Sequence record: NC_049438.1
Origin: Acinetobacter phage vB_ApiM_fHyAci03
DNA: 64,000 nucleotides
Reading direction: 5' to 3' (one strand)
The notes below the pieces were generated by a model. The model was not told where the DNA came from. It saw nothing but the letters and a program-made list of their open reading frames with translations, and made no database searches. The position numbers were made by a program, and so were the translations under genes. Positions within the stretch are counted from its first letter, which is position 1; the number at the start of each line of letters is the position of its first letter. Below are positions 3,294 through 48,360 of this stretch, one piece after another.

Positions 3294-4847
3294 ATGCAAG
3301 ATGTGAACGATTTGAAAATGTTCGCTTTTTGGCAAAAAGTTGATACCGCAGAATACGATCAAATTATTAACAATAAAGCAGAGTCAATTACTGCTCCAAA
3401 ATTTGACGATGGTGCTACAGAAATTGAATCTACCGATGCAGCATACAACGGTGTATTTAGACAACTTTATGGTAATCAAGACCCTAACGTTACATCAACA
3501 AAAGAATTAATCAATACTTATCGAAGTATGCTTAATAATTATGAAGTTGATAATGCGGTTCAAGAAATTGTCTCTGATGCAGTAGTGTATGAAGATGGGT
3601 ATGATGTTGTATCATTGGACTTAGACCAAACAAAATTTTCAGAAAATATTAGAGAGAAAATTTTAGAAGAATTTAACGAAGTTCTCAACATGTTAAAATT
3701 CCAACGAAAAGGATCTGATCATTTCAGGCGTTGGTATGTTGATTCTCGTATATTTTTCCATAAAATCATTAATCCATCTCGTCCTAAAGATGGAATTATT
3801 GAACTTAGACGCCTTGACCCTAGACAAGTGCAATTTATTCGTGAAATCGAAACTGTTACTGAAAAAGGTGTTAAAGTTGTCAAAGGATATCGTGAATACT
3901 TTATCTATGACACACAAAATGATTCGTATAACTGTGGCGGCCAACATTTTGCAGCAGGGACAAAGGTTAAGATTCCTTACTCTGCAATGGTGTATGCCCA
4001 TTCAGGATTAACAGATTGTTGCGGCAAAAATATCATCGGGTATTTGCACAGAGCTGTAAAGCCAGCAAACCAGCTTAAATTGCTTGAAGACGCAATGATG
4101 ATATATCGTCTTACTCGTGCACCGGATCGTCGAGTTTTTTATATCGATACCGGTAATATGCCAGCACGTAAAGCTGCCCAGTATATGCAACACATTATGA
4201 ATTCTCACCGAAATAGAATTTCATATGACGCTTCAACCGGTAAAATTAAAAATCAAGCAAATATGATGGCCTTGACAGAAGATTATTGGTTGCAACGTCG
4301 TGATGGTAAAGCTGTAACAGAAGTTGATACTCTTCCTGGAATGTCTGGGATGAATGAAATGGATGATGTCCTCTATTTCAGAAAGGCATTATACATGGCT
4401 TTACGTGTTCCTCTGTCAAGAATTCCAGATGAACAATCACAAAATGTGTTTGATATGAGCACAGCTATTTCTCGTGACGAGCTTAGATTTGATAAGTTCA
4501 TAATGGAATTACAACACAAATTTGAAGAAGTTTTCCTTAATCCTCTCAAAAGCAACTTATTGCTTAAGAGAATCATCGACGAGGATGAGTGGGAGAATGA
4601 AATAAATAATATCAAAGTCGTATTCCACAAAAATTCCTATTTCACTGAAATGAAAGAAATGGAAATTATGGAACGCCGAGTCAATGCGCTGAATTTGGTT
4701 GAACCTTATGTTGGAAAATATATTTCTAATCAAACTGCAATGAAACAATTCTTGCATATGTCAGATGAAGAAATTGCAGCAGAGCGTAAGATTATTGACG
4801 AAGAGCTTAAAGATAAAGTATATAACCCACCAGAAGAGGAACTATAA
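3294..4847 (+). CDS. 20: Portal vertex protein gp20
   Basis: 517 aa (T4 gp20 is 524 aa). Synteny 19-20-67-68-21. Confidence 0.9.
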
Positions 4848-6148: not shown

Positions 6149-6982
6149 ATGCTGAAAGAACAATTACTTAAGGAAGCTCAAGAAATTGAAGTTTCCGTAG
6201 AATTAGACGGTATTTTTGAATCAGTAGAACTTTCTGAAGAAATGCAACAGAATTTTAAAACTGTATTCGAAGCTGCTGTTAAGAAAAATGCCGCAACTTT
6301 AGCTGAAGCGCATATTACACAAATCGCCGAAAAGGCTGATGAACGTGTTAATGAAGCAGTCGAAGAGCGTTCTAAGGCTATCGAAGCTAAACTTGTTGAA
6401 TGTGCTGATAAATTATTTGAGCATACTGCAAAAGAATGGCTTGCTGAAAATAAAGTCCAAGTTGAACGTGGTATCAAGGCAGATTTATTCGAATCAATGT
6501 TTGAAGGTCTCAAAGCTTTGGTTGTAGAACATAATGTTGTTTTACCTGAAGAATCAGTTGATGTTGTAACTGAAATGGAAGAAGAACTCCAAGAACATAA
6601 AGAAGAAAATTCAAAATTGTTCAGTGCCTTAACTGAAGCTCAAGATGAATTAAAAACTTTGAAACGCGAAATTGCCGTAAATGAAGCAACAAGTGAACTT
6701 ACTGAAAGCCAAAAAGAAAAAGTTCATGGCTTAATTGAAGGCCTTGAATACGGCGATGCATTTGAAGCCAAACTACAAGCTATTGTTGAAATGGCAACTA
6801 CCTCTAAGCAACCCGCTACAATTGTTGAAAGCACAAGCGACACCAATGAAGCCGAAATAAATAATACTAATAGCGAAGCAGATGGATTAAACTACATTGT
6901 GGAAGAGCATAAAGAGCCTGAAACATCTCCAGTACCAAATGCAAAAATCAACTCATATGTAGCAGCTGCAAAACGCTTCTAA
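6149..6982 (+). CDS. 22: Prohead core scaffold protein gp22
   Basis: 277 aa, acidic, coiled-coil rich. Position between 21 and 23. Confidence 0.8.
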   Translation: MLKEQLLKEAQEIEVSVELDGIFESVELSEEMQQNFKTVFEAAVKKNAATLAEAHITQIAEKADERVNEAVEERSKAIEAKLVECADKLFEHTAKEWLAENKVQVERGIKADLFESMFEGLKALVVEHNVVLPEESVDVVTEMEEELQEHKEENSKLFSALTEAQDELKTLKREIAVNEATSELTESQKEKVHGLIEGLEYGDAFEAKLQAIVEMATTSKQPATIVESTSDTNEAEINNTNSEADGLNYIVEEHKEPETSPVPNAKINSYVAAAKRF

Positions 6983-7011: not shown

Positions 7012-8592
7012 ATGTCTCAATTCAAACAAAAAACTAAAGAACAATTAATGGAAACTTGGGGTGATTTGCTCACTGCTGAAGGTTTACCAAAAATTGATGA
7101 AAGCCGCCATGTAGTAATGGCTAAAATCTTCGAAAACCAAGAAGCGGATTTTGCTACTGGCACTGAATACCGTGATCCTGAAATTGTTAAAGCATTTAGT
7201 GGTTTCTTAACCGAAGCAGAAATTGGTGGTGACCATGGTTATGATGCAACAAATATTGCAGCAGGTCAAACTTCTGGTGCTGTAACTCAAATCGGTCCTG
7301 CGATTATGGGTATGGTACGCCGTGCAATTCCTAACTTGATTGCTTTTGATATTTGTGGTGTACAACCTTTAAATGGTCCTACGGGTCAAATCTTCTCGTT
7401 ACGTTCAGTGTATGGTAAAGATCCTCTAGCAGCTGGTGCTAAAGAAGCTTTCCACCCAATGCTATCTCCTGACACAATGCATTCAGGTCAAGGTGCTGCT
7501 GAAGCATTTGAAAATGTTAAAGCTGGTGACACATTAGCAATTGGTGATATTAAACGTCATGACTTTGCTGACACAGGTCGTGTATATATCCAAGCAATTA
7601 AAGCAGTAACAGTTGATGCTGATGCTACTGATGCAGAAAAACTTGATGTAGAAATCAAAAAATTAATGGCCTCAGGTTCAGTTGCTGAAATTGGCGCTGG
7701 TATGGCTACATCAGTTGCAGAATTGCAAGAAGGTTTCAATGGTTCACAAAATAACCCTTGGAACGAAATGGGATTCCGTATCGACAAACAATCAGTTGAA
7801 GTTAAATCTCGTCAATTGAAAGCACAATACTCAATTGAACTTGCGCAAGATTTAAAAGCTGTACATGGTATGGATGCTGATGCCGAATTAGCAGGTATTC
7901 TTGCAACAGAAATTATGCTTGAAATCAACCGTGAAATTGTTGATTGGATCAACTTCTCAGCTCAAATCGGTAAAACTGGCTTCACACAAACAAATGGCTC
8001 TAAAGCAGGTGTATTTGACTTCCAAGATCCGATCGATGTAAAAGGTGCACGTTGGGCTGGTGAAGCGTATAAAGCGCTTTTAATCCAAATCGATAAAGAA
8101 GCTTCAGAAATTGCTCGTCAAACTGGACGTGGTATCGGTAACTTCATCATCGCATCTCGTAACGTAGTTATGGCACTTGCACAAGTTGATGAACGTGTCA
8201 GCCCTGCTGCTCAAGGTCTTGCTTCTGGTATGAACTACGACACTACTAAAGCAACATTTGCTGGTGTACTTGGTGGTCGTTACAAAGTGTATATCGATCA
8301 ATATGCACGTGAAGATTATTTCACAGTTGGTTTCAAAGGTTCAAGCGAACTTGATGCTGGTATTTACTACAGCCCATACGTTCCATTGACTCCATTACGT
8401 GGTTCTGATCCTAAGAATTTCCAACCAGTGATGGGCTTCAAAACTCGTTATGCAGTTGGTATCAACCCATTCGCAGATACAGTTGCACAAGCTCCAGCTG
8501 GTAACAAGCGTATTAGCAATGGTATGCCAACCATCGAAAATTCAGCTGGTAAAAACGGTTACTTCCGTAAAGTCTATGTTAAGGGAATCTAA
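7012..8592 (+). CDS. 23: Major capsid protein gp23
   Basis: 526 aa. Long stretches identical to T4 gp23, for example AEIGGDHGYDATNIAAGQTSGAVTQIGPAIMGMVRRAIPNLIAFDICGVQP and GFRKVYVKGI at the C-terminus. Confidence 0.97.
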   Translation: MSQFKQKTKEQLMETWGDLLTAEGLPKIDESRHVVMAKIFENQEADFATGTEYRDPEIVKAFSGFLTEAEIGGDHGYDATNIAAGQTSGAVTQIGPAIMGMVRRAIPNLIAFDICGVQPLNGPTGQIFSLRSVYGKDPLAAGAKEAFHPMLSPDTMHSGQGAAEAFENVKAGDTLAIGDIKRHDFADTGRVYIQAIKAVTVDADATDAEKLDVEIKKLMASGSVAEIGAGMATSVAELQEGFNGSQNNPWNEMGFRIDKQSVEVKSRQLKAQYSIELAQDLKAVHGMDADAELAGILATEIMLEINREIVDWINFSAQIGKTGFTQTNGSKAGVFDFQDPIDVKGARWAGEAYKALLIQIDKEASEIARQTGRGIGNFIIASRNVVMALAQVDERVSPAAQGLASGMNYDTTKATFAGVLGGRYKVYIDQYAREDYFTVGFKGSSELDAGIYYSPYVPLTPLRGSDPKNFQPVMGFKTRYAVGINPFADTVAQAPAGNKRISNGMPTIENSAGKNGYFRKVYVKGI

Positions 8593-11465: not shown

Positions 11466-12551
11466 TTAATATATGATTCCGGCATCCAATGCAGAACGAT
11501 GAACAATACGTCCATGTCTAGATTCTTGGACATCCACTTCCGGGAAATCTTTAATCATTTTAGCTAAAGTTAACAAATGATAGTAGTATGGATTATCTTC
11601 CGGAGGTTGTTTCCAATCACCACCAGTTTTTGTAATCTTTTCAATTTCATCCATTACCCACCAACCAGCCCAAATATATGCAGAATTACGATGTGGAAGA
11701 GGATGGACATATTGTCGTTTATCTTCAGGTATAACGATTTCTTTTTCTGCAACATTAACCGATGTACTTTTCTTAACAGTGAACGGCAAATAATTTGCAT
11801 GTGTTGCAGTTAATGTACATTCATGGTTAACTGTACCAACGCTTGAAGCCGTTACATTAATTTTTGCTGTTGTCTCTCCAGTATTCCAAGCGTAAGCATA
11901 AGTAACACCAGCTGGGCCGCCTGAGGCAATAGCATCAACAGAATAAACATCACCAACTTTAACATCAGAACTATCCGCCAACACGTTAAAATTGACACCA
12001 GTCATTGCAGTTTTATTAACTGTGATTGTTAATTCATTCGAATCAATAATCTTATCAGTATAATCAGTTGCTTTGACTGTGATCTTACATGTAAGCTTTA
12101 CTGGTCCAGGAGCAGTTGGTGTTTTAGTTGTAGTTGCAGTAGTCGAACCATCCGACCAAAGATATGTTATTGTTGCGCCAGCTGGTTGACCTGCAACAGT
12201 TGCTGTTGCTGTATAAGATTCACCAAAATTAATAGTAGGTTTCGATGTAGCAATAGAACCGGTAGTAGTCTGGGTAATTTTAGTTACAGTTAAGTTCGTT
12301 GTTGCCGTTTTAACATCATCGGCTTCGCCTTCGACTTTAGTTGTCGATGTAACTTTAATTACATTTGTGCCTACCTTTGTAGTTACATAGTCTAACGTAT
12401 TAGTTGTTGAAGTTTGAGCAACTCCATCGACTTCCCATTTATATTCAACAGTCGAACCTTCTGGCGCACCAGTAACAGTTGCAGTAAACTTTTGAGTTTT
12501 CCCTTTTTCGACAGAAGGGTTAACTGGGGATATTTGTAATGTTGTTGCCAT
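11466..12551 (-). CDS. hoc: Hoc, highly immunogenic outer capsid protein (tandem Ig-like domains + C-terminal capsid-binding domain)
   Basis: 361 aa. Thr/Val-rich tandem ~90-aa repeats (TATVTGAPEGSTVEYKWEV..., TATATVAGQPAGATITYLWSD..., AIASGGPAGVTYAYAWNTGE...) followed by a Trp-rich C-terminal domain. Position 24-hoc-inh as in T4. Confidence 0.85.
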   Translation of the reverse strand: MATTLQISPVNPSVEKGKTQKFTATVTGAPEGSTVEYKWEVDGVAQTSTTNTLDYVTTKVGTNVIKVTSTTKVEGEADDVKTATTNLTVTKITQTTTGSIATSKPTINFGESYTATATVAGQPAGATITYLWSDGSTTATTTKTPTAPGPVKLTCKITVKATDYTDKIIDSNELTITVNKTAMTGVNFNVLADSSDVKVGDVYSVDAIASGGPAGVTYAYAWNTGETTAKINVTASSVGTVNHECTLTATHANYLPFTVKKSTSVNVAEKEIVIPEDKRQYVHPLPHRNSAYIWAGWWVMDEIEKITKTGGDWKQPPEDNPYYYHLLTLAKMIKDFPEVDVQESRHGRIVHRSALDAGIIY

Positions 12552-13340: not shown

Positions 13341-14855
13341 ATGAGTGACATCAACGTAATGTTTTACGATTATAGCCACATCAAGATCAGTACCCAGCAG
13401 TCGATATTCAGAGAACTAAGAGATTACTTCTCATTTTATGTGGATGGATATCAGTTTTCGCCTAAATATGTTTATGGTACTTGGGATGGAAGATTAAAGA
13501 TGCTTGGAACTGATGGCTTGCTACCATTTGGCCTTTTAGGACAAGTAGTAAAATTTGCGCAGAATAATATGCTATCAATTGCTATCCATCCAGATGTTTC
13601 AGCTAAAACTGAAATGACACGTGACGCCTTCAATGATTGGATTAGTTCTAAGACGTATTATTCTGGCTCAGAAGAAATCTTCCCATATTGGTATCAACTC
13701 AATGCAGTATATGAAGCCATTGTTAACAAGCGCAGAATTTTGAATTTGCCTACATCAGCCGGTAAATCGTTAATTCAAGCCTTATTGTCAAAATATGTCA
13801 TAGAAACATCAGATCGTTCAGTTTTAATTTTAGTGCCAACAACTTCTCTTGTAACTCAGATGAAAGATGATTTTGTTGATTATCGATTGTTTGAAGAAGA
13901 TGAGATTGCAGAAGTTCGTTCAGGCAAGCGCCAAAAGCATGAACGAATTGTTATTTCTACATGGCAATCAGCTATCAAAAAGCCAAAGGAATGGTTCAAT
14001 CAATTCAATATGTTATTGTGTGATGAAATGCATTTAGCCATTGGCAAATCTATTTCAGAAATCATTAACAAATTAAACTACTGTGAATTCAAAATAGGCT
14101 TGTCTGGATCACTACGTGATGGCAAAGCCAATTTAATGCAGTATATTGGATTGTTTGGTGAAATCTATAGCCCAGTTAGCACAAAGGACTTAATGAATGA
14201 TGGACAAGTTTCACAACTTCGAATTAACGCGTTATTCTTGAAATACCCAGAAACAGTTTCAAATGCAATGGCTAAACATGACTATGCAACAGAAGTTAAG
14301 TTCATTACAAACTTAGCCAAACGAACACAATGGATTTCAAATCTATCATTACGACTTGCAAATAGATCAGAAAATGTTTTTGTCATGTTTAAAAATATTG
14401 AGCACGGTAAAGCGATTTATGACAGCATAAAATCTAGTGGTCATGAACATGTGTATTATGTTTCAGGTGAAGTTAGTTCAGATGAACGAACACATTTGAA
14501 GAAAATGGCTGAAGAACACACAGGTGTAATCATCATTGCTTCATACGGAGTTTTCTCTACAGGTATTTCCGTTAGAAATCTACATCATGTCATTTTAGCT
14601 CACGGAGTAAAATCAAAGGTTATAGTCCTGCAGACAATCGGGCGTGTTTTGCGAAAACATTCTAGCAAAAAGGTTGCACAGATTTGGGATCTAATTGATG
14701 ATATGTCTATTACTGTCGAACGAGACGGAGCAAAACAACGTAAAAATGTTAATTATTTGTTGAAACACGGTATAGACCGTGTTGAACGGTATGCTGCAGA
14801 GCAATTTGACTATATTATGAAGGACGTTTACTTTTTAGAGAATAACCGCTCATGA
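13341..14855 (+). CDS. uvsW: UvsW RNA-DNA and DNA-DNA helicase
   Basis: 504 aa. MSDINVMFYDYSHIKISTQQSIFRELRDYFSFYVDGYQFSPKYVYGTWDGRLKML parallels the T4 UvsW N-terminus. Walker A motif NLPTSAGKS. Confidence 0.9.
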   Translation: MSDINVMFYDYSHIKISTQQSIFRELRDYFSFYVDGYQFSPKYVYGTWDGRLKMLGTDGLLPFGLLGQVVKFAQNNMLSIAIHPDVSAKTEMTRDAFNDWISSKTYYSGSEEIFPYWYQLNAVYEAIVNKRRILNLPTSAGKSLIQALLSKYVIETSDRSVLILVPTTSLVTQMKDDFVDYRLFEEDEIAEVRSGKRQKHERIVISTWQSAIKKPKEWFNQFNMLLCDEMHLAIGKSISEIINKLNYCEFKIGLSGSLRDGKANLMQYIGLFGEIYSPVSTKDLMNDGQVSQLRINALFLKYPETVSNAMAKHDYATEVKFITNLAKRTQWISNLSLRLANRSENVFVMFKNIEHGKAIYDSIKSSGHEHVYYVSGEVSSDERTHLKKMAEEHTGVIIIASYGVFSTGISVRNLHHVILAHGVKSKVIVLQTIGRVLRKHSSKKVAQIWDLIDDMSITVERDGAKQRKNVNYLLKHGIDRVERYAAEQFDYIMKDVYFLENNRS

Positions 14856-15646
14856 ATTACAAAAGAATATACGATGAACTTATTAATAATGCGCTAAATC
14901 GTGCTAGTGTCAAATCTAAAGCTGCTCCTGGAGAATTAGAAACGCATCACATCGTGCCTAAATGCATTGGCGGCACTAATGATACTACGAATTTAGTTAA
15001 TCTTACCACCAGAGAGCATATTATCGCGCATCTTTTGCTTGCTAAAATTCATGGCGGGAAATTAGTACGAGCCGCCATGGCAATGCATATGGGGCGCCCT
15101 TTATATAAATCGTCACGAGGCTTGGCAGCAATACGAAGTGAGTTTTCAAAACAACGAAAGGAACAAATGAAGGGAAATACATTTGGCTCTTATGTTTGGA
15201 CACCTGAACGCAAAAATATACACAAACAAGCGATGAGCTTGGTAGGGTATACTGATGCTAAACGTAAAGCTCTAGAGAAAGCGTGGGCTAAAAATACCGG
15301 GTCCAAGCAAACACCTGAAAGTAATTTTAAGCGTTCAAATAGTATGAAATTATTAGGGTTTGTCCCGGTTAAAGCAGGAGACTTTAAGACTTGTTCTAAT
15401 GCTGGCAAAGCCAATAAAGGTGTCAAGAAATCATTTAGGTCTGAGTCACATAGTGAAAATTGGAAACGGTCATTTAAACAAAGGTACCCTATTTGGGAGT
15501 ATGAAGACCAGATACGAGAAATATGGTACGCCCATGATAAACCTAAAGTAGCAACTTTAAGAAAGATCGCTACGGCTAAAGGCATACCAGAAGGACACCT
15601 CGGTAAAATGTGTGCTAACTTTTTTAAACAAGATGGGACCAAATAG
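14852..15646 (+). CDS. HNH homing endonuclease (freestanding)
   Basis: 264 aa. HNH motif ETHHIVPKCIGGTNDTTNLVNLTTREHIIAH followed by a basic C-terminal half. ATGA overlap with the uvsW stop. No counterpart at this position in T4. Confidence 0.8.
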   Translation: MNYKRIYDELINNALNRASVKSKAAPGELETHHIVPKCIGGTNDTTNLVNLTTREHIIAHLLLAKIHGGKLVRAAMAMHMGRPLYKSSRGLAAIRSEFSKQRKEQMKGNTFGSYVWTPERKNIHKQAMSLVGYTDAKRKALEKAWAKNTGSKQTPESNFKRSNSMKLLGFVPVKAGDFKTCSNAGKANKGVKKSFRSESHSENWKRSFKQRYPIWEYEDQIREIWYAHDKPKVATLRKIATAKGIPEGHLGKMCANFFKQDGTK

Positions 15647-15654
15647 GTCCCTTT
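15635..15654. terminator. Bidirectional terminator hairpin between the HNH gene and convergent - strand ORFs
   Basis: GGGACC-AAATA-GGTCCC followed by TTTG. It overlaps the HNH gene stop codon. Confidence 0.4.
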
Positions 15655-15660
15655 GTGCTA

Positions 15661-15930
15661 TCAATAATTTTCGTCACAGTCTTCACACATTTTGCGATCA
15701 GCTATTTCATTGTAGACACGAATTTCAACTCGTCGCCAATGATCACACTCTTCACAACAAAACACACGAGTTTCTAAGTTGTCAATAAAGATGACTGAAT
15801 GCTTTAGATTCGGATCTAAATTCATTTCGATCAAATTTTTCTCTAGCGCATTACCCCAAGTTTCTTCTAAACCGTCTAGGCGTTCTGCTAGCCCATCCAT
15901 TTGGATATCGTCTGGTTGCTCAAATTTCAT
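15661..15930 (-). CDS. Hypothetical small Zn-ribbon protein (uvsY.-2-like position)
   Basis: 89 aa with a CCEEC...CEDC motif. Confidence 0.5.
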   Translation of the reverse strand: MKFEQPDDIQMDGLAERLDGLEETWGNALEKNLIEMNLDPNLKHSVIFIDNLETRVFCCEECDHWRRVEIRVYNEIADRKMCEDCDENY

Positions 15931-16192
15931 AAGGCTTACTCCAAAATGTTAAAAATCTATTGCGCATTTCATCATCGCATAAGTTGAAAATAATCAAACA
16001 AATCGAATCATGGTCTTCTTCATCAAAAAACTTGACTAGGCCTGTCATAGATTTTTTAGATCCATCAGAAAATGCTAAACATTTTCCATCTTTATTGCGC
16101 AGTATTATTTCTTGGCACCAGTTATGCACCTCAAGTTTAAATATTTTGCCATTAGCGTTTATTGTTACAATAGATGTAGGTAAAGTAACCAT
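15920..16192 (-). CDS. Hypothetical protein
   Basis: 90-aa ORF. Its end overlaps the neighbouring genes. Confidence 0.45.
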   Translation of the reverse strand: MVTLPTSIVTINANGKIFKLEVHNWCQEIILRNKDGKCLAFSDGSKKSMTGLVKFFDEEDHDSICLIIFNLCDDEMRNRFLTFWSKPYEI

Positions 16193-16509
16193 TATTTGTA
16201 CTCCTTTTCATCTACATAAAATTCGATGAATTTGTCGACATCCTTGGATGTTGCGTATGCTGTTACAACCCCACGTTCAAAGTCAAAACTTTTAACTAAT
16301 AAACGTTCATGCCATGGATCAACTGCCCAACCAAATGGATATTTACGATACGGACAAACATAATGGACATTACATTCTTCAACGCCATTGAACATTAAAC
16401 CAGGAGATCCAACAAATTGAACTACCCATCGTTCAGATGTGTTACGTACAGTAGGCGTATCGCATGTTAATTTAGTAGTTTCAGCGCGAAATGAATTAAC
16501 TTTGCCCAT
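16192..16509 (-). CDS. Hypothetical protein (no similarity to UvsY)
   Basis: 105-aa ORF. Confidence 0.5.
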   Translation of the reverse strand: MGKVNSFRAETTKLTCDTPTVRNTSERWVVQFVGSPGLMFNGVEECNVHYVCPYRKYPFGWAVDPWHERLLVKSFDFERGVVTAYATSKDVDKFIEFYVDEKEYK

Positions 16510-16584
16510 GATATTTTACTCATATCGTTTAATATGTATGCATTATATACCACAAAAGGACCATAGTAAATAGTCCTTTGTAGA

Positions 16585-16752
16585 TTATTTTAGCTTTTTA
16601 TCAGTGTACTTGCAACAAGGTACAAAATGAGAAATATAAACTCCTTGTTCATGACATGGACATCCACATTTTTTAATAATCTCATTCTGCTGTGCTGTTA
16701 GCACAGGTTTCCCAATTTTAAGAATTTTGTTTAGTACTTTTACTAATTTCAT
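16585..16752 (-). CDS. Hypothetical small Cys-rich protein (55 aa), not in the provided ORF track
   Basis: Hand translation of the - strand: MKLVKVLNKILKIGKPVLTAQQNEIIKKCGCPCHEQGVYISHFVPCCKYTDKKLK. ATGA overlap with the upstream small ORF. Confidence 0.35.
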   Translation of the reverse strand: MKLVKVLNKILKIGKPVLTAQQNEIIKKCGCPCHEQGVYISHFVPCCKYTDKKLK

Positions 16753-16916
16753 AACAATAACTCTGTTTCTAATAGCATGTCACCATTAGATTCTAGAACT
16801 GGCAAATCTTGAATGTGCTGCAAGCAGTGTCCAGGATGGACAGGTCCTTGATCAGTCTCAACTACCAATGCTTCATCAATCGGCATCTTACATACCGAAC
16901 ATATACGTGTTTCCAT
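16749..16916 (-). CDS. Hypothetical small Zn-ribbon-like protein (55 aa), not in the provided ORF track
   Basis: Hand translation: METRICSVCKMPIDEALVVETDQGPVHPGHCLQHIQDLPVLESNGDMLLETELLL. The stop TGA overlaps the ATG of the next small ORF. Confidence 0.35.
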   Translation of the reverse strand: METRICSVCKMPIDEALVVETDQGPVHPGHCLQHIQDLPVLESNGDMLLETELLL

Positions 16917-16994
16917 TATTATTCTCCAAATGTGTATAGATGTATTTATAGATCTTTGAACAGCTGATATATCAGATACATCTAAACCATCAGT

Positions 16995-17075
16995 CCCCTA
17001 TCTTCTCCGACCGAATAGATATAATTAGAGCGGTGAACCGGTAGAACCATTATACCATCAAAATTTTATAAAGCA
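16995..17075 (+). repeat. Copy A of a dispersed ~80-bp intergenic element (identical 36-bp core at 17019-17054: ATATAATTAGAGCGGTGAACCGGTAGAACCATTATA)
   Basis: 36/36 identity, plus the shared flanks TCCGACC upstream and CATCAAAATTTT...AAATGT downstream, with the copy at 48191-48270. Confidence 0.7.
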
Positions 17076-17121
17076 AATGTGTGCTTATACATAAGGCGTT
17101 CAACAGATCAAATTTTGATCA

Positions 17122-17520
17122 TCACTGATGTCTAGCGCCACTAAGTTGTAGCTTTAGTTGTTCAAGTGTATCCGGGTTATCTAAGATGCTAAACATAACA
17201 GTTACAATAATAGCATTATTATCATATTGTGCTTGCACTGTCACGCCTAGCCTAACAATTCTTGGCTCATATGCACGAATAGCTGATGTTATGCTTTTTT
17301 CTACTGTACTAACTGTAAGTGGAGACATGTTTTCAAATAAAGCATCGCCAATTTCACAGCCGAATTCTGGGTCAAATGGACGAGAGCCTTTAGGTGTTGT
17401 AATAATTCCTAAAAGAGAATTTTTAACTGCACGTGCGCCAACAGATGCAGCTACATCCTTATTCCATGCACGTGCCATTTCAGGTGATATGTCTGTATAC
17501 ATATCATTAATATTTTGCAT
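17122..17520 (-). CDS. 25: Baseplate wedge subunit gp25
   Basis: 132 aa, exactly T4 gp25 length. GPW/gp25-like sequence. Synteny 25-26 divergent from 51-27. Confidence 0.85.
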   Translation of the reverse strand: MQNINDMYTDISPEMARAWNKDVAASVGARAVKNSLLGIITTPKGSRPFDPEFGCEIGDALFENMSPLTVSTVEKSITSAIRAYEPRIVRLGVTVQAQYDNNAIIVTVMFSILDNPDTLEQLKLQLSGARHQ

Positions 17521-18164
17521 TATAGCACCTCAACAAATTCTTTAAAGCCTTTTATAATATGTACATGAGACTTGCCACACTTAGGACATTTGATTGGCAC
17601 AACCAGCACAGGTTGTGGAGCTAATAAAAATGATTTGATATAATTAATATCATCTTCAGTTATTGCATTGTATAGATCTTCTAATTCAAGCTCATTTAAA
17701 TCTTCTACATAAATTCGTTCATCACCTACATAAATCGATTCTATAGATTTTGCAATCATTAATGGCACATTGTCGTCATCCCAGAGTTCAGGCCATCTAA
17801 ATGCCACTTTAAACTTTTTGAATGGATACAATGTCTCGAGATTACTATTGCCGTAATCTATCTGTGCTTTAGAGACATCTAACTCTACATCATGTACATG
17901 CCCGCATTCACATGTATATTCTTGTGTGACCTTTCCAAAATGTTCGCTATTTGCGATTAAATTGATTAGAACTAATTCGGCATCATGTTTCGGTAAATTC
18001 ATGAGCCCGGTACACTTCTCAATGATTGACGAGTATACCTTCTTCATATTATCGGAGATTGTCGAATCTTTAGAAATTATAAGGCTTGTATAATCTCTCA
18101 ATGAATATGATTTACATTCTACAACGCTAGAGCCTAACTTAACATTGAATTTCTTTTCAAACAT
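17520..18164 (-). CDS. 26: Baseplate hub subunit gp26, assigned by synteny and size
   Basis: 214 aa (T4 gp26 is 208 aa). ATGA-type overlap with gene 25. Cys pairs CECGH...CPKCG. Confidence 0.6.
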   Translation of the reverse strand: MFEKKFNVKLGSSVVECKSYSLRDYTSLIISKDSTISDNMKKVYSSIIEKCTGLMNLPKHDAELVLINLIANSEHFGKVTQEYTCECGHVHDVELDVSKAQIDYGNSNLETLYPFKKFKVAFRWPELWDDDNVPLMIAKSIESIYVGDERIYVEDLNELELEDLYNAITEDDINYIKSFLLAPQPVLVVPIKCPKCGKSHVHIIKGFKEFVEVL

Positions 18165-18197
18165 AATTTAGTAGCCTACTAAAAGTTTTATTAAGAG

Positions 18198-18209
18198 TAT
18201 TTATAAATA
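18198..18209. promoter_or_regulatory. Palindromic bidirectional late promoter TATTTATAAATA (TATAAATA on both strands) between gp26 and gp51
   Basis: 18202-18209 reads TATAAATA on the + strand (gp51 ATG 23 nt downstream). 18198-18205 reads TATAAATA on the - strand (gp26 start at 18164). Confidence 0.5.
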
Positions 18210-18231
18210 TTTTTAATAAAAGGAGGCTTAT

Positions 18232-18987
18232 ATGGCTAATATTATAAGATGTAGACTTCCTGACGGTATTCATCGGTTTAAGCCCTTTACAGTAGCTGAC
18301 TATAGAGATTTCTTACTTATCAGAAATGATATGATTTCTAAAACTGATTCAGAGCAAGAAGAACTTGTTAGCGAATTGGCAGCAGATTATTTTAATGAAT
18401 ACCCTAAGACATGGCAACAATATTTGTTCTTAAACGTTTTCACTGGATCTGTAGGTAAAACAAAGGTGCCAATTGTGTTTCAATGTCCTACTTGTGGCAA
18501 ATCTCAAAAGCGTTTGTTTAATATTGCTCAGGATGATTTAGTTGCTCCAAAAATACAACTAAATGATGAAACAGAACTGTCATTCAAATTTCCTGATGAG
18601 ATTTACACTGATTCTGCACTATTGGCCCTAGACAACATTGAAAGTGTATCACACAAAGGGGCTGAATACCTTTGGCAAGATTTAGATAAAGAAACACAAG
18701 ACAATATAATCGAGATGCTGGACTTTGAGAAGTTTGAGATGCTTGTTAAAAAATTAAAGCCTATTCATTTTGAAATGAATATAAGCTGCTGTGAAAAGCA
18801 TACAATTGTATTTGAAGACTTAGCATCTATTTTCAAATTGTTAATTAATCCAGACGAAGTATTTCCATTTTATGAAATTAACAACATTCTGATTAAAAAT
18901 AACTATGATTGGAATTCTATCATGGCGATGCTTCCAGCTGAACGCAGTATAGCACTGTCAATGATAGAAAGGGATAGCAAAAGATGA
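18232..18987 (+). CDS. 51: Baseplate hub assembly catalyst gp51, assigned by synteny and size
   Basis: 251 aa (T4 gp51 is 249 aa). CPTCGKS Zn-ribbon-like motif. Immediately upstream of gp27 with an ATGA overlap. Confidence 0.6.
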   Translation: MANIIRCRLPDGIHRFKPFTVADYRDFLLIRNDMISKTDSEQEELVSELAADYFNEYPKTWQQYLFLNVFTGSVGKTKVPIVFQCPTCGKSQKRLFNIAQDDLVAPKIQLNDETELSFKFPDEIYTDSALLALDNIESVSHKGAEYLWQDLDKETQDNIIEMLDFEKFEMLVKKLKPIHFEMNISCCEKHTIVFEDLASIFKLLINPDEVFPFYEINNILIKNNYDWNSIMAMLPAERSIALSMIERDSKR

Positions 18988-20567
18988 CACAACAAAGACC
19001 AGGGTATCCTAACGTCAGTATCAAGCTATATGAAGATTATGACGCATGGAAAGAAAATAGATTTATTGAACTTGCAGCAACATTTACTACACTTACTCTT
19101 CGTGATAGCTTGTATGGCACAAATGAAGGCATTCTTCAATTTTATGATTCAAAAAATTTACACGCCAAATTAAATGGCGAACAAATAATTCAAATATCAC
19201 TTTCGAATGCAAACTCCAAGGATGTAATTACACGCATCTATGGATGTAATGACACATCAGTTTCAGTTGATGAAAAGGGCGATAATATTCTTGCATTCAA
19301 CCTCCGTCCTTTACACACGGTAGAAAATGTTAAATTCAGCCGTGCATTCTTTGCTAATGCAACAGAATCTATTGAAACTATGATAAAGTCAATCTACAAC
19401 AATAAAGCACAGCTTGCGCCTAAAGTTAAAGGATTGAATGTTTATGTTCCTCGTGTAGCATGGGTAAACACAATTGAAGATTATTTTGAATATGTTAGAG
19501 AAGTTGGCTTATCTGTTGAATCAGAAACACATGCATTCGTTTGGGAAGATTTTACCGGCATCAATATTTCGGATTACAAATTCATGATTGATCAGAAACC
19601 AAGAGTAATGGTAGTTGGTGATCCCGCACAAATTGGATCATATATCTCCAATATGAAAGAGCAATTGGCATATGACTTTACTTGGCTCGCTAAAACAAAT
19701 CGAAATGTACGAAACCCATTAGAGAATGTGACAGTGTATAGCCATTCATTCAACGACAAAGAAATTCAAAGAATTTCAATAGGCGAAGGCACTAACTCTG
19801 TTGTCGTATCTAGATCTGGCGGCTATTCTGAAATGACATATCGCAATGGATACGAAGAAGCATTTAGATTGCTTACTATGGCTCAATATGATGGTTATGC
19901 CACATGTAAAGTTATTGGTGACTTTACGCTGACACCATTGCAGAAAGTGATTTTCGGTGACAAAAAGGGACAATTCAAAACTGAATTTTATATTGATGAA
20001 GTAATTCATGTCATCACAAACAATTCATCTGAAACTCATTTATACTTGTTCACAAATGGTAAAGATCTTGTGCCAGTAAACATCGAAAAAATTAAAAATG
20101 AGATTGAGACCATTACACCACCATCAGATACAGTTCAACCTGAAGCATCAGCCGACAGGAAAGGTGCACAATGGGATCTTGATAAGTTATCAGAAGTAGT
20201 TTTGAAGAATGCACAAGGAAGAAAATCTACGGGTGAATGTGCATTGTATGTTCGTAAAGCGTTACAAGCAGCGCAATTACAAAGTTTCTTCGCTGGTGGA
20301 CTGGGTAATGCAAATGAAATGCCATCACGTCTAACACAGATGGGATGGATCGCAGTAGGCCAAAACGTTAAAAATGTCAAGAAAGGCGACATTGCAGTGT
20401 TCCAACGAACTAATACACGCCTTGGACAGAAATATGGTCATATTTGTATTTTTACCGGATCACAGTGGGTATCAGACTTTATCCAATCTAGTGTACAACC
20501 TAACAGAAATGATAATTTAACCTATACAGTATATAGAGCCCGTTATGGGTATAGTGCAGGAGCATAA
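18984..20567 (+). CDS. 27: Baseplate hub subunit gp27 fused to a C-terminal CHAP/NlpC-P60-like cysteine peptidase domain
   Basis: 527 aa. Residues 1 to about 390 align closely with T4 gp27 (MTQQRPGYPNVSIKLYEDYDAWKENRFIELAATFTTLTLRDSLYGTNEGILQFYDSKNLH..., SRSGGYSEMTYRNGYEEAFRLLTMAQYDGYA). An extra ~140 aa carries TGECALYVRKAL...KKGDIAVFQRT...YGHICIFTG, a Cys...His signature typical of CHAP domains. Confidence 0.9.
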   Translation: MTQQRPGYPNVSIKLYEDYDAWKENRFIELAATFTTLTLRDSLYGTNEGILQFYDSKNLHAKLNGEQIIQISLSNANSKDVITRIYGCNDTSVSVDEKGDNILAFNLRPLHTVENVKFSRAFFANATESIETMIKSIYNNKAQLAPKVKGLNVYVPRVAWVNTIEDYFEYVREVGLSVESETHAFVWEDFTGINISDYKFMIDQKPRVMVVGDPAQIGSYISNMKEQLAYDFTWLAKTNRNVRNPLENVTVYSHSFNDKEIQRISIGEGTNSVVVSRSGGYSEMTYRNGYEEAFRLLTMAQYDGYATCKVIGDFTLTPLQKVIFGDKKGQFKTEFYIDEVIHVITNNSSETHLYLFTNGKDLVPVNIEKIKNEIETITPPSDTVQPEASADRKGAQWDLDKLSEVVLKNAQGRKSTGECALYVRKALQAAQLQSFFAGGLGNANEMPSRLTQMGWIAVGQNVKNVKKGDIAVFQRTNTRLGQKYGHICIFTGSQWVSDFIQSSVQPNRNDNLTYTVYRARYGYSAGA

Positions 20568-30122: not shown

Positions 30123-30442
30123 TATAATGATCCAATGTATGTTGCTGATTGTTCTGGGATATGAATTGATACCCAGAGTTTACGATATAATTCTACTGAT
30201 TCAAAATGTACTTCATTTGCATTTTCTTTGTGTGCATACTGAAATAATTCAGGATCATTGCGTAAAATAAAACTTCCTTCTAATTCAGAGCCGTCTGAAA
30301 TAATAACAGTTTCACCTGGTTGGCGTGTTTGATTCATTTCAACAAACACATAATCCTTTGGCCCTAATTTTCTAGGCGTCTCAAGAGTAGTGTTATAGCC
30401 TGCATCTTGGCTATCTTCTTTAATTTGTTGATATGTTTTCAT
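30122..30442 (-). CDS. Hypothetical protein
   Basis: 106-aa ORF. Confidence 0.45.
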   Translation of the reverse strand: MKTYQQIKEDSQDAGYNTTLETPRKLGPKDYVFVEMNQTRQPGETVIISDGSELEGSFILRNDPELFQYAHKENANEVHFESVELYRKLWVSIHIPEQSATYIGSL

Positions 30443-34728: not shown

Positions 34729-35251
34729 GTAATTCGATTAATTGAGCGGCTTCTTCAAGATCAAGATTGTTAAATAGTGCATGGCGTGGTGAAGTTGACT
34801 GGCGAGCTTCTCGTTCAGCGAGTTGAACAATTTCGTCAAACGTTAAATCTTTATGTGTTACCCCAAGGCGAATTTTAGGAGTTGCTCCACAAATAATATA
34901 GAACTTTGACCCGTTTAAATGAACATTAGGCTGTGTTTCATTGATGAACACATGTGCATTCTTAAGGCGGTCTTCAAAGAAGCGTTTAGTTTCACGAATG
35001 TTATCATTCAGCATTAATGAGTCATGGAATTTTTTACGTTCCTTTTTATCGGCTAGAGCTTGACGTTTCAGGACCTCTTTACGCAAGTCTGAAAAATAAC
35101 CAACTCGTTTACCATTTTTCAGCACACTGCACCAGTCTTTGTCATCTCCAAACATTTCAACCAAAACTTCTGGCGTTAATGTGTGTACTGTATGTTTCAT
35201 AATATTCTCCTCATATGCGATATTTGATATGACTATTATACCAATAGTCAT
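34715..35251 (-). CDS. Hypothetical protein (occupies the alc-like position between pseT and rnlA; identity not established)
   Basis: 178-aa ORF. Confidence 0.4.
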   Translation of the reverse strand: MTIGIIVISNIAYEENIMKHTVHTLTPEVLVEMFGDDKDWCSVLKNGKRVGYFSDLRKEVLKRQALADKKERKKFHDSLMLNDNIRETKRFFEDRLKNAHVFINETQPNVHLNGSKFYIICGATPKIRLGVTHKDLTFDEIVQLAEREARQSTSPRHALFNNLDLEEAAQLIELLAGN

Positions 35252-35263
35252 ATCAATTGTAAA

Positions 35264-44429: not shown

Positions 44430-44510
44430 TATTATAACAAAAATTTTTAATTGTGTAAATAGCGTGCAACAAAAAAGAGAGCCGAAGCTCTCTTAATTTA
44501 TTTGTTTGAA

Positions 44511-45437
44511 TTAAAGGCCATTTAATAAGTCATTTAATTCTGGATCTTCTGCTTTTACTTCAGACTGAACTGGTTCAGGAGCAGCCTGTGAAGTTGTATC
44601 GGTTGCAGCATATTGAGCCATTTGTTTTTCAAAATCGGCAAGTTCATTTGCTACTGCATCAGCATTTTTAGAAGCTTCAGCGGCTGCACCACCAAGAGCT
44701 GCTGTACCCATTACACGATTGAATGATTCTAAGTTCTTTTCAAAACTGTTGAATTTATCTTTTGCAATGATTGAATCAATATCGAACATGTCTTCAATCA
44801 ATTTTGCTTGATAAGCTTCATCATCAATGTTAGGAATAGGCGATTGTTTTTGGAACTTACAGTCATCATAGTTACTGAAGCCTGATACTTTCTTCACTTT
44901 CATAATGAAGTTAGCACCATCGTAAGGACAAGTAACATCAACTGGAATTTCGCCAATATCGGTATCGACTTCAACCATAGAATTGATTTTATCCATGATT
45001 TTTTGTCCGAAACGATATTTGAATACTTTACCTTCATTTTCTGGGTGGGCTGGGTCTTTAATAACTAAGATATTAGACCAGAAAGAAGATTTACGTTTAA
45101 GTTTACCGTACAACGCATTGTCAGTGTTGTACAAATCATTTTCACTGATGTATTTACATACTGGACATTCATCGAATTTGCCATGTGTAGAAGTACAATT
45201 TTCGATGTACCATTTTGAACCGATTTTGAAGCCATGATTAATCAATTTGACAAATGGCATAGATTCAGGAGTTTTACCAGGCAAGAAACGAATTACTGCA
45301 GAACCATTGCCGGCGGTGTCGAGAGTTAATTTCCATTCACGACCATCTGCTTCATTAAAACTAGAACCACCTTTAAGTTCTTGTAATTGAGCAGCTAATT
45401 GAGATGGGTCACGACGAGTAAACATTGCAGTTGACAT
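44511..45437 (-). CDS. 32: Single-stranded DNA-binding protein gp32
   Basis: 308 aa. Near-identity blocks with T4 gp32 (GNGSAVIRFLP, ENEGKVFKYRFG, PVDVTCPYDGANF, acidic C-terminal ...LNDLLNGL). Confidence 0.95.
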   Translation of the reverse strand: MSTAMFTRRDPSQLAAQLQELKGGSSFNEADGREWKLTLDTAGNGSAVIRFLPGKTPESMPFVKLINHGFKIGSKWYIENCTSTHGKFDECPVCKYISENDLYNTDNALYGKLKRKSSFWSNILVIKDPAHPENEGKVFKYRFGQKIMDKINSMVEVDTDIGEIPVDVTCPYDGANFIMKVKKVSGFSNYDDCKFQKQSPIPNIDDEAYQAKLIEDMFDIDSIIAKDKFNSFEKNLESFNRVMGTAALGGAAAEASKNADAVANELADFEKQMAQYAATDTTSQAAPEPVQSEVKAEDPELNDLLNGL

Positions 45438-45566
45438 ATATTTTCCTTAAGATTAACAGTTGGCGATGTACCGTGTTTATTAAACTCTTATAAATTGTAC
45501 ACCTAAAATATAAGAGAGATTAACTTATATCAAATGATTTAAAGCAATTGATATAATTATTTATAC

Positions 45567-46217
45567 TCAAAATTTTGCAGCCTTTATTGCTGATATAAAC
45601 TTCGCCTTACATTCATCTGAAGACACAATGAAAATTTTTCTGTATGCTTTGAGGCGCACAGAATATGATGACCAGATGATGTTGTCATGTTTGTCGTGTT
45701 CCTCAATTATATTGAGGAAGCTATCAAGCATAACAAAGGTTTCAAAAGAAATAATTCCACTTTGAAGGAGTTTAAAAATATATGAAGATTGGATAGATTC
45801 ATTATAAACAAAAATATCATTAAGCGTCTTCACATTTACCTTTTGTGAAAAATAATAAATGTTCTTGACGTCATCTTCATAACGTGTCATAACTGTTCGC
45901 AATCGAGCAAGATACGTTTTGTAAAAATTGACTGCATCGGAATCACTGATTTCTCCAATCCAAGCATCTTGGTTAGCTACTAAGTTACTTATGAAGATCA
46001 GACACAATTCCTTCAAAGTGAATTTTTCAGACAATTTCTCAAAAAAGAACTTGTCTTTCCTCTTGGTGTATGATGCATCAGAAACTTTCATACGCCAATT
46101 GGATTTAATTACACAACGTCTGCCATTAAAATGGTTTTTCAGCTGGAGGTACAAGTTATATACGCTCTTTGCATCAATGCGAATGTTATTGTTTGGAGGC
46201 AACAACAACTTAACCAT
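45567..46217 (-). CDS. 59: Helicase loader gp59
   Basis: 216 aa (T4 gp59 is 217 aa). LKELCLIFISNLVANQDAWIGEISDSDA and SSYIFKLLQSGIISFETFVMLDSFLNII match T4. Confidence 0.9.
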   Translation of the reverse strand: MVKLLLPPNNNIRIDAKSVYNLYLQLKNHFNGRRCVIKSNWRMKVSDASYTKRKDKFFFEKLSEKFTLKELCLIFISNLVANQDAWIGEISDSDAVNFYKTYLARLRTVMTRYEDDVKNIYYFSQKVNVKTLNDIFVYNESIQSSYIFKLLQSGIISFETFVMLDSFLNIIEEHDKHDNIIWSSYSVRLKAYRKIFIVSSDECKAKFISAIKAAKF

Positions 46218-46509
46218 ATAAGAAATCTAATGTAGAGTACGTGTTTTGTTTAGCTATAGAAGGCTTTAACATGTTGTCTTCTAATGCCTCAGTCTTAAGG
46301 CGTTCAATAATAGTTTCAGGAATATACTTAGCAAACTGATTTTCAGGAATGCTTCGCTCTTCCATCCACCATGTTACTGCTTCAAGATATGTTAAACATT
46401 CAGTTCTAACAAGCTCTGCAATTTCATGAGCAGTAGTTTGTTTGTCATAGGCTGCGGCAGATTTCTGTTGAAGAACATCCACTAATTCATTATTTTCTAA
46501 AGACTGCAT
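46210..46509 (-). CDS. 33: Late transcription co-activator gp33
   Basis: 99 aa. ...SIPENQFAKYIPETIIERL...STLDFL matches the T4 gp33 C-terminal half. Confidence 0.8.
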   Translation of the reverse strand: MQSLENNELVDVLQQKSAAAYDKQTTAHEIAELVRTECLTYLEAVTWWMEERSIPENQFAKYIPETIIERLKTEALEDNMLKPSIAKQNTYSTLDFLYG

Positions 46510-46756: not shown

Positions 46757-46814
46757 TTCAATTACCTCTTAAGTATTTGGTATGAGTATATTTTAATATA
46801 AGAAACATAAAGCA

Positions 46815-47045: not shown

Positions 47046-47052
47046 GTTTATC

Positions 47053-48135
47053 TCAGAACCCGTTAAGGTCCTTTAGCAATTTTGTCAATTGATTTTTGAC
47101 AAGATATGGATAGATTTTGCCGCGAGGAGCAGGTTTGTATTCTTTATAATGATTGATGATAGATTCACGAATATCGTCTCGAATATAATCAAAATCGATT
47201 AAAATACGATTACGTTTGAAACGATGGAATTGCAAATCTGCGATTTGCTTTGCCATTGCCATGGCATCAGTTCTATATTGTTCAAGAATTTCACCATCTT
47301 CATCTTCAATTTGAACACCTTGGAGTTTGAGTAATTTGTGACATTCAGCCACACCTGTTTTTTTATTTTTAGCCTTTTTCATGATTTCTTCGGTTAAAGC
47401 TTCATAAACTTCATCATCTGATTTGCCGACTAATTTTGTAACAAATGCTGCCGTTGTAGATGGAGTGCGTTCGTCTTCTTCATAATTTAACCAGAAGTCG
47501 CCACGAACTTTGATAGATGCTACACAGTCTTTGCGATCGCCTTTGAGAACTTTTGTTAAACAATCTTCTTGTGGCGAGCCAGTTTTGACTTTAACAAATT
47601 TTTTCTGAATAGGAGAATATTGATCTACGTCTTCAAGTTTATGTAACTGTGTAAAGTCGCCATCTGATGAAATGATACGAACTTTATATCCTTGTTTTGA
47701 TAAATAAGATGACAAGACTGCAATACAATCATCGGCCTCACAATGACGAACATCAACTACAACCCAAGGCATGTTGTCTTTAAGTTCTTGAATTACAATA
47801 CCAAGTGCATTGAAATAACCATCCCAGTCAAATGATTCTGCTTCCTTAGCTGCGTCACGTGCTATCGCACGGTTTCGTTTGTAATAATCTTCTTCTTGAC
47901 GACGCCAATAGCCATAACGTGCATTATCAATAGCGATAATAACATGGTCATACCCGTCAGATTTAAATTTCAGTGCATTATGTTTAATTGTCGACAAAAC
48001 TAACTGTCGAACAATTGGAACAGTGAACTTCATACCTGGTTCATATGTAACTGCCACAGTGGCTAAAGCGATTTGTGACAAATCGATAAGTAAAGCACCT
48101 GGCTTATCCTCACCGTAAAAATGGTCTAAACTCAT
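47053..48135 (-). CDS. rnh: RNase H (5'-3' exonuclease / flap endonuclease)
   Basis: Matches T4 Rnh (LIDLSQIAL, GYWRR, IISSDGDFTQLHK, PRGKIYPYLVK). Start placed at MSLDHFYGE (48135) by alignment with the T4 N-terminus. The track ORF starts at 48165. Confidence 0.9.
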   Translation of the reverse strand: MSLDHFYGEDKPGALLIDLSQIALATVAVTYEPGMKFTVPIVRQLVLSTIKHNALKFKSDGYDHVIIAIDNARYGYWRRQEEDYYKRNRAIARDAAKEAESFDWDGYFNALGIVIQELKDNMPWVVVDVRHCEADDCIAVLSSYLSKQGYKVRIISSDGDFTQLHKLEDVDQYSPIQKKFVKVKTGSPQEDCLTKVLKGDRKDCVASIKVRGDFWLNYEEDERTPSTTAAFVTKLVGKSDDEVYEALTEEIMKKAKNKKTGVAECHKLLKLQGVQIEDEDGEILEQYRTDAMAMAKQIADLQFHRFKRNRILIDFDYIRDDIRESIINHYKEYKPAPRGKIYPYLVKNQLTKLLKDLNGF

Positions 48136-48190
48136 ACTACTATCCTTCTGATAAATCAAATACATCTAATACATCTAAAACATTCAAATT

Positions 48191-48270
48191 CAGTCTATTC
48201 CGACCAAAGAAATATAATTAGAGCGGTGAACCGGTAGAACCATTATAACATCAAAATTTTGAGTTGTAAA
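48191..48270 (+). repeat. Copy B of the dispersed ~80-bp intergenic element (identical 36-bp core at 48213-48248)
   Basis: See the copy at 16995-17075. Located in the divergent rnh / gene 34 intergenic region. Confidence 0.7.
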
Positions 48271-48360
48271 TGTTGCTTTAATTCAAGTGTTTAATAAATA
48301 TACATAGAATCCAGAGCTCAGCTTTTAATAAATATATGATAAGATAACAAAGGAAATCGC

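Follow-up and report, generated by a model that had tools for sequence, protein, structure and literature searches.

A repeated promoter-leader module, probably of the uvsY promoter family, and its possible link to replication origins in T4-like Acinetobacter phages

The window analysed here, a stretch of 64,000 nucleotides from Acinetobacter phage vB_ApiM_fHyAci03 (NC_049438.1), contains the same 36-bp sequence at two intergenic loci that lie 31 kb apart. Which function does this element serve, and what has kept its copies identical?

Copies of the element in the window and in related phages

The 36-mer ATATAATTAGAGCGGTGAACCGGTAGAACCATTATA has two exact matches in the window, both on the plus strand. 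The original prediction was correct about their identity, and the second match is located at 48212-48247, one base away from the interval first assigned to it (48213-48248). None of 100 dinucleotide shuffles of the window contained any 36-mer match, with 3 mismatches tolerated. The flanking motifs TCCGACC, CATCAAAATTTT and AAATGT were found at both copies. The similarity, which had been estimated at about 80 bp, is real but larger: it comprises a 62-bp block (17006-17067 versus 48199-48260, 93.5% identity) and a separate 22-bp patch (16964-16985 versus 48148-48169, 91% identity). Both copies have the same orientation and, by the coordinates of the neighbouring genes, are located in non-coding DNA. 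Copy 1 occupies the spacer between gp25 (17122-17520, minus strand) and a gene for a 55-aa DUF2685 protein on the same strand, and copy 2 occupies the spacer between rnh (minus strand) and gene 34 (48361-52305, plus strand). The features of both copies are listed in Table 1.

Table 1. Features of the two window copies and positions of the 36-mer in the AB-Navy97 genome
Feature	Location	Position	Strand	Remark
Whole module	Window, copy 1	16917..17121	-	From the gp25 stop to the start of the DUF2685 (uvsY.-2-like) gene
Upstream palindrome GATCAAA/TTTGATC	Window, copy 1	17106..17120	.	At about -60
MotA-box-like TGCTTTA	Window, copy 1	17069..17075	-	14 nt 5´ of the -10 element
Extended -10 element TGGTATAAT	Window, copy 1	17049..17057	-	Same as T4 PuvsY TGGTATAAT
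36-mer	Window, copy 1	17019..17054	-	-10 hexamer and predicted transcript from +1 to about +24; C-rich, G-poor
Predicted start A	Window, copy 1	17042	-	7 nt past the -10 element; placed by analogy with T4 PuvsY, whose start is mapped
Shared leader, CTATTCGGTCGGAGAAGATAG and then TAGATGTAT/GATATATC repeats	Window, copy 1	16964..17018	-	
TATAAATA inside the leader	Window, copy 1	16943..16950	-	27 nt before the ATG; seen in the sequence
First gene, 55-aa DUF2685 protein	Window, copy 1	16749..16916	-	T4 uvsY.-2 family
Module in the divergent rnh/gene 34 spacer	Window, copy 2	48148..48270	-	
Sigma-70-type promoter, TTTACA-17 nt-TGTTATAAT	Window, copy 2	48242..48270	-	11/12 match; TG present
36-mer	Window, copy 2	48212..48247	-	
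Predicted start A	Window, copy 2	48235	-	Placed by the same reasoning as 17042
Two tandem TAGATGTAT units in the leader	Window, copy 2	48160..48177	-	
rnh, RNase H/flap endonuclease	Window, copy 2	47053..48135	-	
36-mer	AB-Navy97	16116	+	Upstream side of srd; ORF-less
36-mer	AB-Navy97	46913	-	Inside the cassette splitting the DNA polymerase gene
36-mer	AB-Navy97	80243	+	Between genes 3 and 2; ORF-less
36-mer	AB-Navy97	118526	-	Equivalent to window copy 1
36-mer	AB-Navy97	149644	-	Equivalent to window copy 2

The window is 97-99% identical to the Lazarusvirus phages of Acinetobacter baumannii, which are T4-like and include AB-Navy97. The proposed search of complete and related genomes revealed five exact copies of the 36-mer in the complete AB-Navy97 genome (165 kb), which indicates that the window pair is not a unique duplication, and matches in 50 phage records at 5-6 places per record. 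Three of the five AB-Navy97 copies precede genes. The two copies on the plus strand are opposed to their neighbours, contain no ORF and are followed by strong hairpin terminators approximately 110-165 nt downstream. Because two of the five copies are ORF-less and terminator-ended, the module does not serve protein expression alone.

The presence of a sixth copy in certain records was considered as copy-number variation and rejected, since in KARL-1 the two ends of the record overlap by 115 bp, which accounts for the extra place. The AB1I1M-1 record also overlaps itself, in the rnh/34 copy, and these self-overlaps inflate the apparent copy number. Both linear records begin and end within a module copy, with self-overlaps of 82-115 bp. 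An origin of the core in the host, or mimicry of host DNA, was also rejected: no match to the core was found in 185,579 bacterial species genomes, and the lone metagenome match, inside a GC-rich ORF, is a chance match.

Several further observations concern the surroundings of the copies. A multi-ORF cassette interrupts the DNA polymerase gene of both AB-Navy97 (segment coordinates 44496-49183) and AB1I1M-1 (13397-19090); it is annotated as an 'intron' in AB-Navy97, and one module copy is its internal promoter. GC-rich hairpins, including the perfect palindrome GCTGCGCAGC, are located 3´ of three AB-Navy97 module copies (segment coordinates 16170-16200, 46840-46860 and 30355-30385). The sequence TGCGCAGC occurs eight times in the 165-kb genome, with six occurrences within modules. 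AB1I1M-1 retains twin hairpins of other sequence (GCAG-CUUG-CUGC and UCGAG-CUUG-CUCGA).

Promoter anatomy

The genes that either window copy could serve are all on the minus strand, and read on this strand the element is a promoter. Judged from its sequence, the 36-mer is composed of the -10 hexamer and the first ~24-30 bases of the predicted minus-strand transcript. Both copies contain the sigma-70 -10 element of a T4-type middle promoter (TAtaaT, often with TGn), TGGTATAAT in copy 1 and TGTTATAAT in copy 2. The -35 region of copy 1 is poor, and the MotA-box-like sequence tTTGCTTTA is present instead (TTGCTTTA-14-TGGTATAAT). Relative to the MotA box (a/t)(a/t)(a/t)TGCTTtA, copy 1 carries TTTGCTTTA, whereas copy 2 carries the -35 element TTTACA in its place. 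The start sites are predicted by equivalence with T4 PuvsY, the mapped start of which, 115371 (PMC2988021 Table 1), is the equivalent A in TATAATGAATCTA. The shared promoter module, one of the readings in the original prediction, is supported, and it has further genomic copies.

The spacing of the box differs from the canonical arrangement. The MotA box of T4 middle promoters is 12±1 bp from the -10 element (PMC2988021), whereas the spacing is 14 nt in every box-bearing copy of all three lineages examined (Lazarusvirus, Hadassahvirus and AB1I1M-1). In this phage, the remaining candidate middle promoters have a box spacing of 12-13 nt. Both motA and asiA are annotated in AB-Navy97 and AB1I1M-1, and the MotA dependence of the module promoters is putative. 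The palindrome GATCAAA/TTTGATC was observed in four of the five module copies and in phage Ac42, and is not present in the rnh copy.

Ancestry and concerted evolution

A homologous module is located directly upstream of uvsY in Ac42, which is another phage of the Twarogvirinae. Alignment of the copy 1 spacer with the Ac42 25/uvsY spacer gives a score of 38 (shuffle maximum 28), and the same comparison for AB1I1T gives 43 (shuffle maximum 33). Diverged ORF-less units are also present in the srd-side and gene 3/2 spacers of Ac42, and no module was found in its rnh/34 spacer. The two ORF-less units of Ac42 (segment coordinates 6700-6745 and 7345-7370) have an exact 24-nt block in common, GTGAAACTCGCGCAGCGATAATCG, together with CCTGGAAGGGGA. 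Their sequences suggest that they are a pair of paralogous small-RNA genes.

Members of the family were also identified in T4 and RB69. In T4, TGGTATAATGAATCTAAGTCC is found at PuvsY and in the srd/modA spacer (plus strand, antisense to modA), and the gene 3/2 spacer contains TATAATGGGTCTAAGTCCCTTCC on the plus strand; all of these T4 members are preceded, at 12-13 nt, by a MotA box of consensus sequence. The T4 ORF-less promoters at approximately 11,850-11,905 (+) and 75,960-76,010 (+) of NC_000866 face against their neighbours and combine a consensus MotA box, TGGTATAAT and an initial transcribed sequence identical to that of PuvsY/oriF (TCTAAGTCC.TCC). This pair is missing from the table of 58 middle promoters in a 2010 review (PMC2988021). 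PnrdC.7 (at ~53.3 kb) is a weaker fourth member in T4. In RB69, PuvsY and the gene 3/2 ORF-less unit (segment coordinates 745-830 and 3765-3850) have their own common variant, GGTTTTAGGTC; the lineage-specific form of these two promoters is TATAATGGTTTTAGGTC.

By sequence comparison, the founding copy is the uvsY promoter, which is oriF in T4, and the window repeat is best read as the core of a PuvsY-family promoter-leader module. Copy 1 resembles T4 PuvsY/oriF in its position in the spacer downstream of gene 25, in strand, in the start position relative to the -10 element, in promoter type (aTGCTTCA-13-TGGTATAATGAATCTA in T4 and tTGCTTTA-14-TGGTATAATGGTTCTA here) and in its C-rich, G-poor initial transcript, and the homology is traceable through Ac42. 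It differs in the absence of uvsY, in the leader of ~125 nt, in the presence of five sequence-identical copies and in its first 50 bp, which are not easily melted. A tblastn search of the whole AB-Navy97 genome with the UvsY proteins of Ac42 and T4 detected no uvsY homologue; the module has been retained nevertheless, and the gene next to gp25 is a homologue of uvsY.-2 (DUF2685). The possibility that the leader is a decayed remnant of the 5´ coding region of uvsY was rejected, since local alignments were no better than those of shuffles.

The kinds of element involved, namely T4 middle promoters, oriF and PmSL-like cassettes, are already known. In the searchable literature, in which older T4 work is under-covered, no description was found of a concertedly evolving five-copy family or of the T4 ORF-less members. 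The core sequence was likewise not found in a phage context in the literature searched, and the papers on these phages do not mention the repeat.

Comparison among lineages indicates how the identity of the copies has been maintained. Hadassahvirus phages (AbTZA1, PhT2 and Maestro) carry the module at the same five loci, with the core ending in TAAATTTAT where Lazarusvirus has TAATTATAT. AB1I1M-1, which represents a third lineage, has five copies at the same loci and in the same orientations with a different core (TATAATGGTTCTACCCCCTACCCTTCCAATATTATAT...), and a TGCTGT[AC] box is located 14 nt upstream in all five, including the rnh copy. From -10 to +45 the identity is 0.92 between paralogs and 0.78 between orthologs, and no such excess was observed in the flanks. 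This greater likeness of paralogs indicates concerted evolution, in which gene conversion appears to keep the copies identical within a genome while the core drifts between lineages. Leader segments are mosaic between copies. Constant across lineages are the promoter, the A start, a bias towards C and against G in the first 25 nt, an GGAGAAGATAG-type purine block and repeats of the GATGTAT type. That the element is a promoter-leader module under concerted evolution can be stated with high confidence, and the family provides a clean viral example of non-coding DNA whose copies evolve together. The identity over 36 bp, originally read as a sign of selection, is explained by homogenisation within the genome and not by base-by-base constraint.

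The same comparison bears on the symmetry of the core. In an operator or bidirectional-promoter model, a dimeric protein would bind at GGTGAACCGGTAGAACC between two -10 boxes. The ACCGGT palindrome and its two GGT.AACC half-sites are real in Lazarusvirus, in agreement with the original description, but they are not required: a 1-nt deletion destroys the palindrome in three of the five AbTZA1 copies, and in AB1I1M-1 the second half-site is wholly replaced by CCCCCTACCCTTCC. Of the -10-like boxes claimed for the two strands, that on the minus strand is TGnTATAAT. The plus-strand TATAAT, which is kept in Lazarusvirus and AB1I1M-1, has neither a -35 element nor TGn, received no promoter call in the promoter scan and is missing in Hadassahvirus (TAAATTTAT there). 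The palindrome is dispensable, and a palindromic operator or bidirectional promoter is extremely improbable.

A relationship to the promoter-stem-loop cassettes PeSL and PmSL (Arbiol 2010; Comeau 2014, PMC4122927) had also been suggested, and in spirit it holds. These elements are likewise repeated promoter cassettes in T4-like genomes for which recombination is implied, and the PmSL variant, known from phage nt-1, combines a TGCTT Mot box with a -10 element (PMC4122927). As a rival explanation, the module would be a mobile cassette that mainly mediates modular gene shuffling through recombination between copies. An 11-12-bp stem-loop across the Mot box of the srd-side and pol-split copies, the location of one copy within the insertion splitting gene 43, the mosaic leaders and the evident gene conversion are consistent with such a role. 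However, neither window copy has an upstream stem-loop; no inverted repeat is present at the box, and copy 1 has only GATCAAA/TTTGATC further upstream. Instead of many copies in hyperplastic regions near indels, just five were found, at identical fixed loci in Lazarusvirus, Hadassahvirus and AB1I1M-1. No copy adjoins an indel that separates the window from AB-Navy97, and the proposed comparison of breakpoints with copies showed no association. The conservation is centred on the transcribed region, which lies outside the PeSL definition, and the promoter is followed by a 100-125-nt leader or by no ORF rather than by an adjacent Shine-Dalgarno sequence and start codon. We therefore regard a primarily mobile cassette as very unlikely.

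Elsewhere in the window, a stretch at ~14826-15634 beside uvsW has no alignment to AB-Navy97 and holds a 264-aa ORF (14852-15646, plus strand) with weak, sub-threshold matches to HNH endonucleases. This stretch is probably a mobile homing-endonuclease insertion.

Transcript properties and a possible role at replication origins

The leaders are ~100-125 nt long. C accounts for 28-48% of the first 25 nt in the modules, compared with 13% (maximum 24%) in 19 ordinary early promoters, and this bias of the initial transcript is common to T4 oriF. No excess fold stability relative to shuffles was detected for the window leaders (z = -0.2 and +0.7), and RNAalifold on eight lineage representatives gave a consensus of 0 pairs over +1 to +50. 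A hairpin at +20 to +45 was rejected as a conserved element, since it is weak and differs between variants. A stable 5´ hairpin of a pyrimidine tract and a purine tract (z about -3.7) is present in the gene 3/2 RNAs of T4 and RB69, and is strong only there. Rfam gave no match at gathering score in the window, none at E≤1 in the surroundings of copy 1, and only sub-threshold terminator-like matches at an ORF-less locus. No complementary target of the leader was found in the phage genome. Peptide coding was also rejected: an ATG within the -10 element opens a short frame, but the 1-nt indel of Hadassahvirus shifts it.

These properties bear on a possible RNA-level signal, in which three mRNAs and two small RNAs would share a 5´ leader that is bound by a protein or nuclease of the phage or host, with the ORF-less units acting as regulators or decoys. 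The two ORF-less units of ~110-165 nt with strong intrinsic terminators, conserved in three lineages and in Ac42, the 24-nt block common to the Ac42 pair and the gene 3/2 hairpin of T4 and RB69 are consistent with this explanation. Conversely, the ordinary stability of the window leaders, the absence of a consensus structure over +1 to +50, where the local hairpin is weak and inconsistent, and the failure to find an Rfam match or a complementary target in the phage genome argue against it, and we consider it decidedly unlikely.

The position of the window copies suggests a different role. T4 PuvsY is oriF, and oriG is P34i, a middle promoter on the minus strand within gene 34 (PMC2988021); the T4 record annotates oriF in the 25/uvsY spacer on the minus strand, with the uvsY transcript as primer RNA, and oriG in gene 34 on the minus strand. 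At both origins, leading-strand synthesis is primed by the transcript, which persists as an R-loop within an unwinding element downstream. Origins of this type have a middle-mode promoter inside a minimal origin of ~100 bp; the modules contain a promoter, with the Mot-box reservations given above. Copy 1 is located in the spacer downstream of gene 25, as oriF is, and copy 2, which is on the strand that oriG uses, is ~2 kb away from the point equivalent to oriG. As with P34i/oriG, copy 2 is a minus-strand promoter near the start of gene 34 whose RNA is opposed to that gene. Unlike copy 2, T4 oriG is located within gene 34, at a depth of ~2.1 kb, and has no family motif; copy 2 is in the rnh/34 spacer, where it serves rnh as well, and has a -35 element in place of a Mot box. 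Three copies are within ~1.5 kb of the three cumulative GC-skew minima, and T4 oriE, oriF and oriG have been described near such minima.

We propose that copies 1 and 2 would act as middle-period promoters of the uvsY.-2 operon and of rnh, and that the untranslated part of the transcript could form an R-loop and prime leading-strand synthesis. Copy 1 would then be the counterpart of T4 oriF, and copy 2 that of T4 oriG. The module begins with the palindrome (except in the rnh copy), then has either a -30 box of MotA type (copy 1) or a -35 element (copy 2), and continues with TGnTATAAT, the predicted A start and a C-rich, G-poor, unstructured initial RNA. It is found at five fixed loci: on the srd side, within the interrupted DNA polymerase gene, in the gene 3/2 spacer, between gp25 and uvsY.-2, and between rnh and gene 34. 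A PuvsY-family promoter-leader module with R-loop origin function is the best explanation overall, although we hold it tentatively. Among further functions, that of an origin would be the likeliest for the two window copies, a plausible but slightly more tentative assignment, and the same function is less probable for the two ORF-less copies.

The stability of the duplex does not uniformly follow the T4 pattern. From +1 to ~+50 the values are -1.3 to -1.4 kcal/mol per step, more stable than the genome mean of -1.27, and in all five copies a low-stability stretch (~-1.1 kcal/mol per step) is found at +55 to +105, compared with from ~+20 in T4 oriF. R-loop formation in T4 needs no specific sequence, and the T4 origins have no common motif; the known origin mechanism therefore does not explain the conserved transcribed core. 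The module RNA is pyrimidine-rich, and stable RNA-DNA hybrids are usually favoured by other compositions. A primer-RNA origin of another type is that of ColE1 RNA II, which is also cited in PMC3016281. The modules resemble origins of this type in the dedicated promoter and in the untranslated RNA, which possibly stays hybridised and primes, and the ORF-less copies fit this arrangement; they differ in having neither a G-rich hybrid-forming segment nor a defined RNase H processing site.

In a broader version of the origin explanation, all modules would be replication starts, with five R-loop origins of matching sequence per genome that recombination would keep identical. The family, made up of the uvsY promoter and the conserved ORF-less promoters at the srd-side and gene 3/2 sites, would be ancient, and the T4 ORF-less pair would perhaps represent the true primer promoters of the poorly understood oriA and oriE. 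The T4 ORF-less copies (~11.9 kb and ~76.0 kb) point towards oriA and oriE, at a distance of 3-5 kb. The family motif was searched for in T4 oriA, oriE and oriG, and none was found. To our knowledge, the T4 ORF-less copies were not recovered in plasmid origin screens, from which only ori(uvsY) and ori(34) came out. Both points, like the 14-nt box spacing, also count against an origin role of the window copies. The broader version is unlikely.

A simpler explanation is that the copies are paralogous strong promoters only, the initial sequence of which serves promoter escape or strength and is homogenised by recombination, with no role beyond transcribing the downstream genes and two small RNAs. 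The clear promoter anatomy, the three of five copies that precede genes, the freedom of the core to change between lineages, as expected in the absence of a sequence-specific partner, and the lack of a conserved RNA fold all agree with this explanation. It does not account for the persistence of ORF-less copies, at two constant loci and in constant orientation, from T4 to the Acinetobacter phages, or for a composition that stays C-rich and G-poor even though the sequence itself changes. We consider it doubtful.

The possible origin role of the two window copies bears on how T4-like phages choose their replication origins. A family anchored at the oriF position, with co-evolving copies, some of them ORF-less, at loci conserved from T4 to the Acinetobacter phages, offers concrete, mutable candidates. 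The phages concerned are therapeutic A. baumannii phages, namely the AB-Navy phages, Maestro (the Patterson case) and others such as KARL-1. If the origin idea is false, a well-defined promoter class and two unannotated small-RNA units per genome still result.

Two minor observations concern other promoters. The sequence TATAAATA inside the copy 1 leader is the T4 late-promoter consensus. In ordinary early promoters of this phage (GTTTACA-N-TGnTATAAT), at many sites in AB-Navy97 too, the spacer is often complementary to the first transcribed bases, and the resulting inverted repeat of up to 11 bp brackets the -10 element, as in the series GATATGACTAT, TGGTATAAT, AGTCATATC; one example is located at 35221-35263 of the window on the minus strand.
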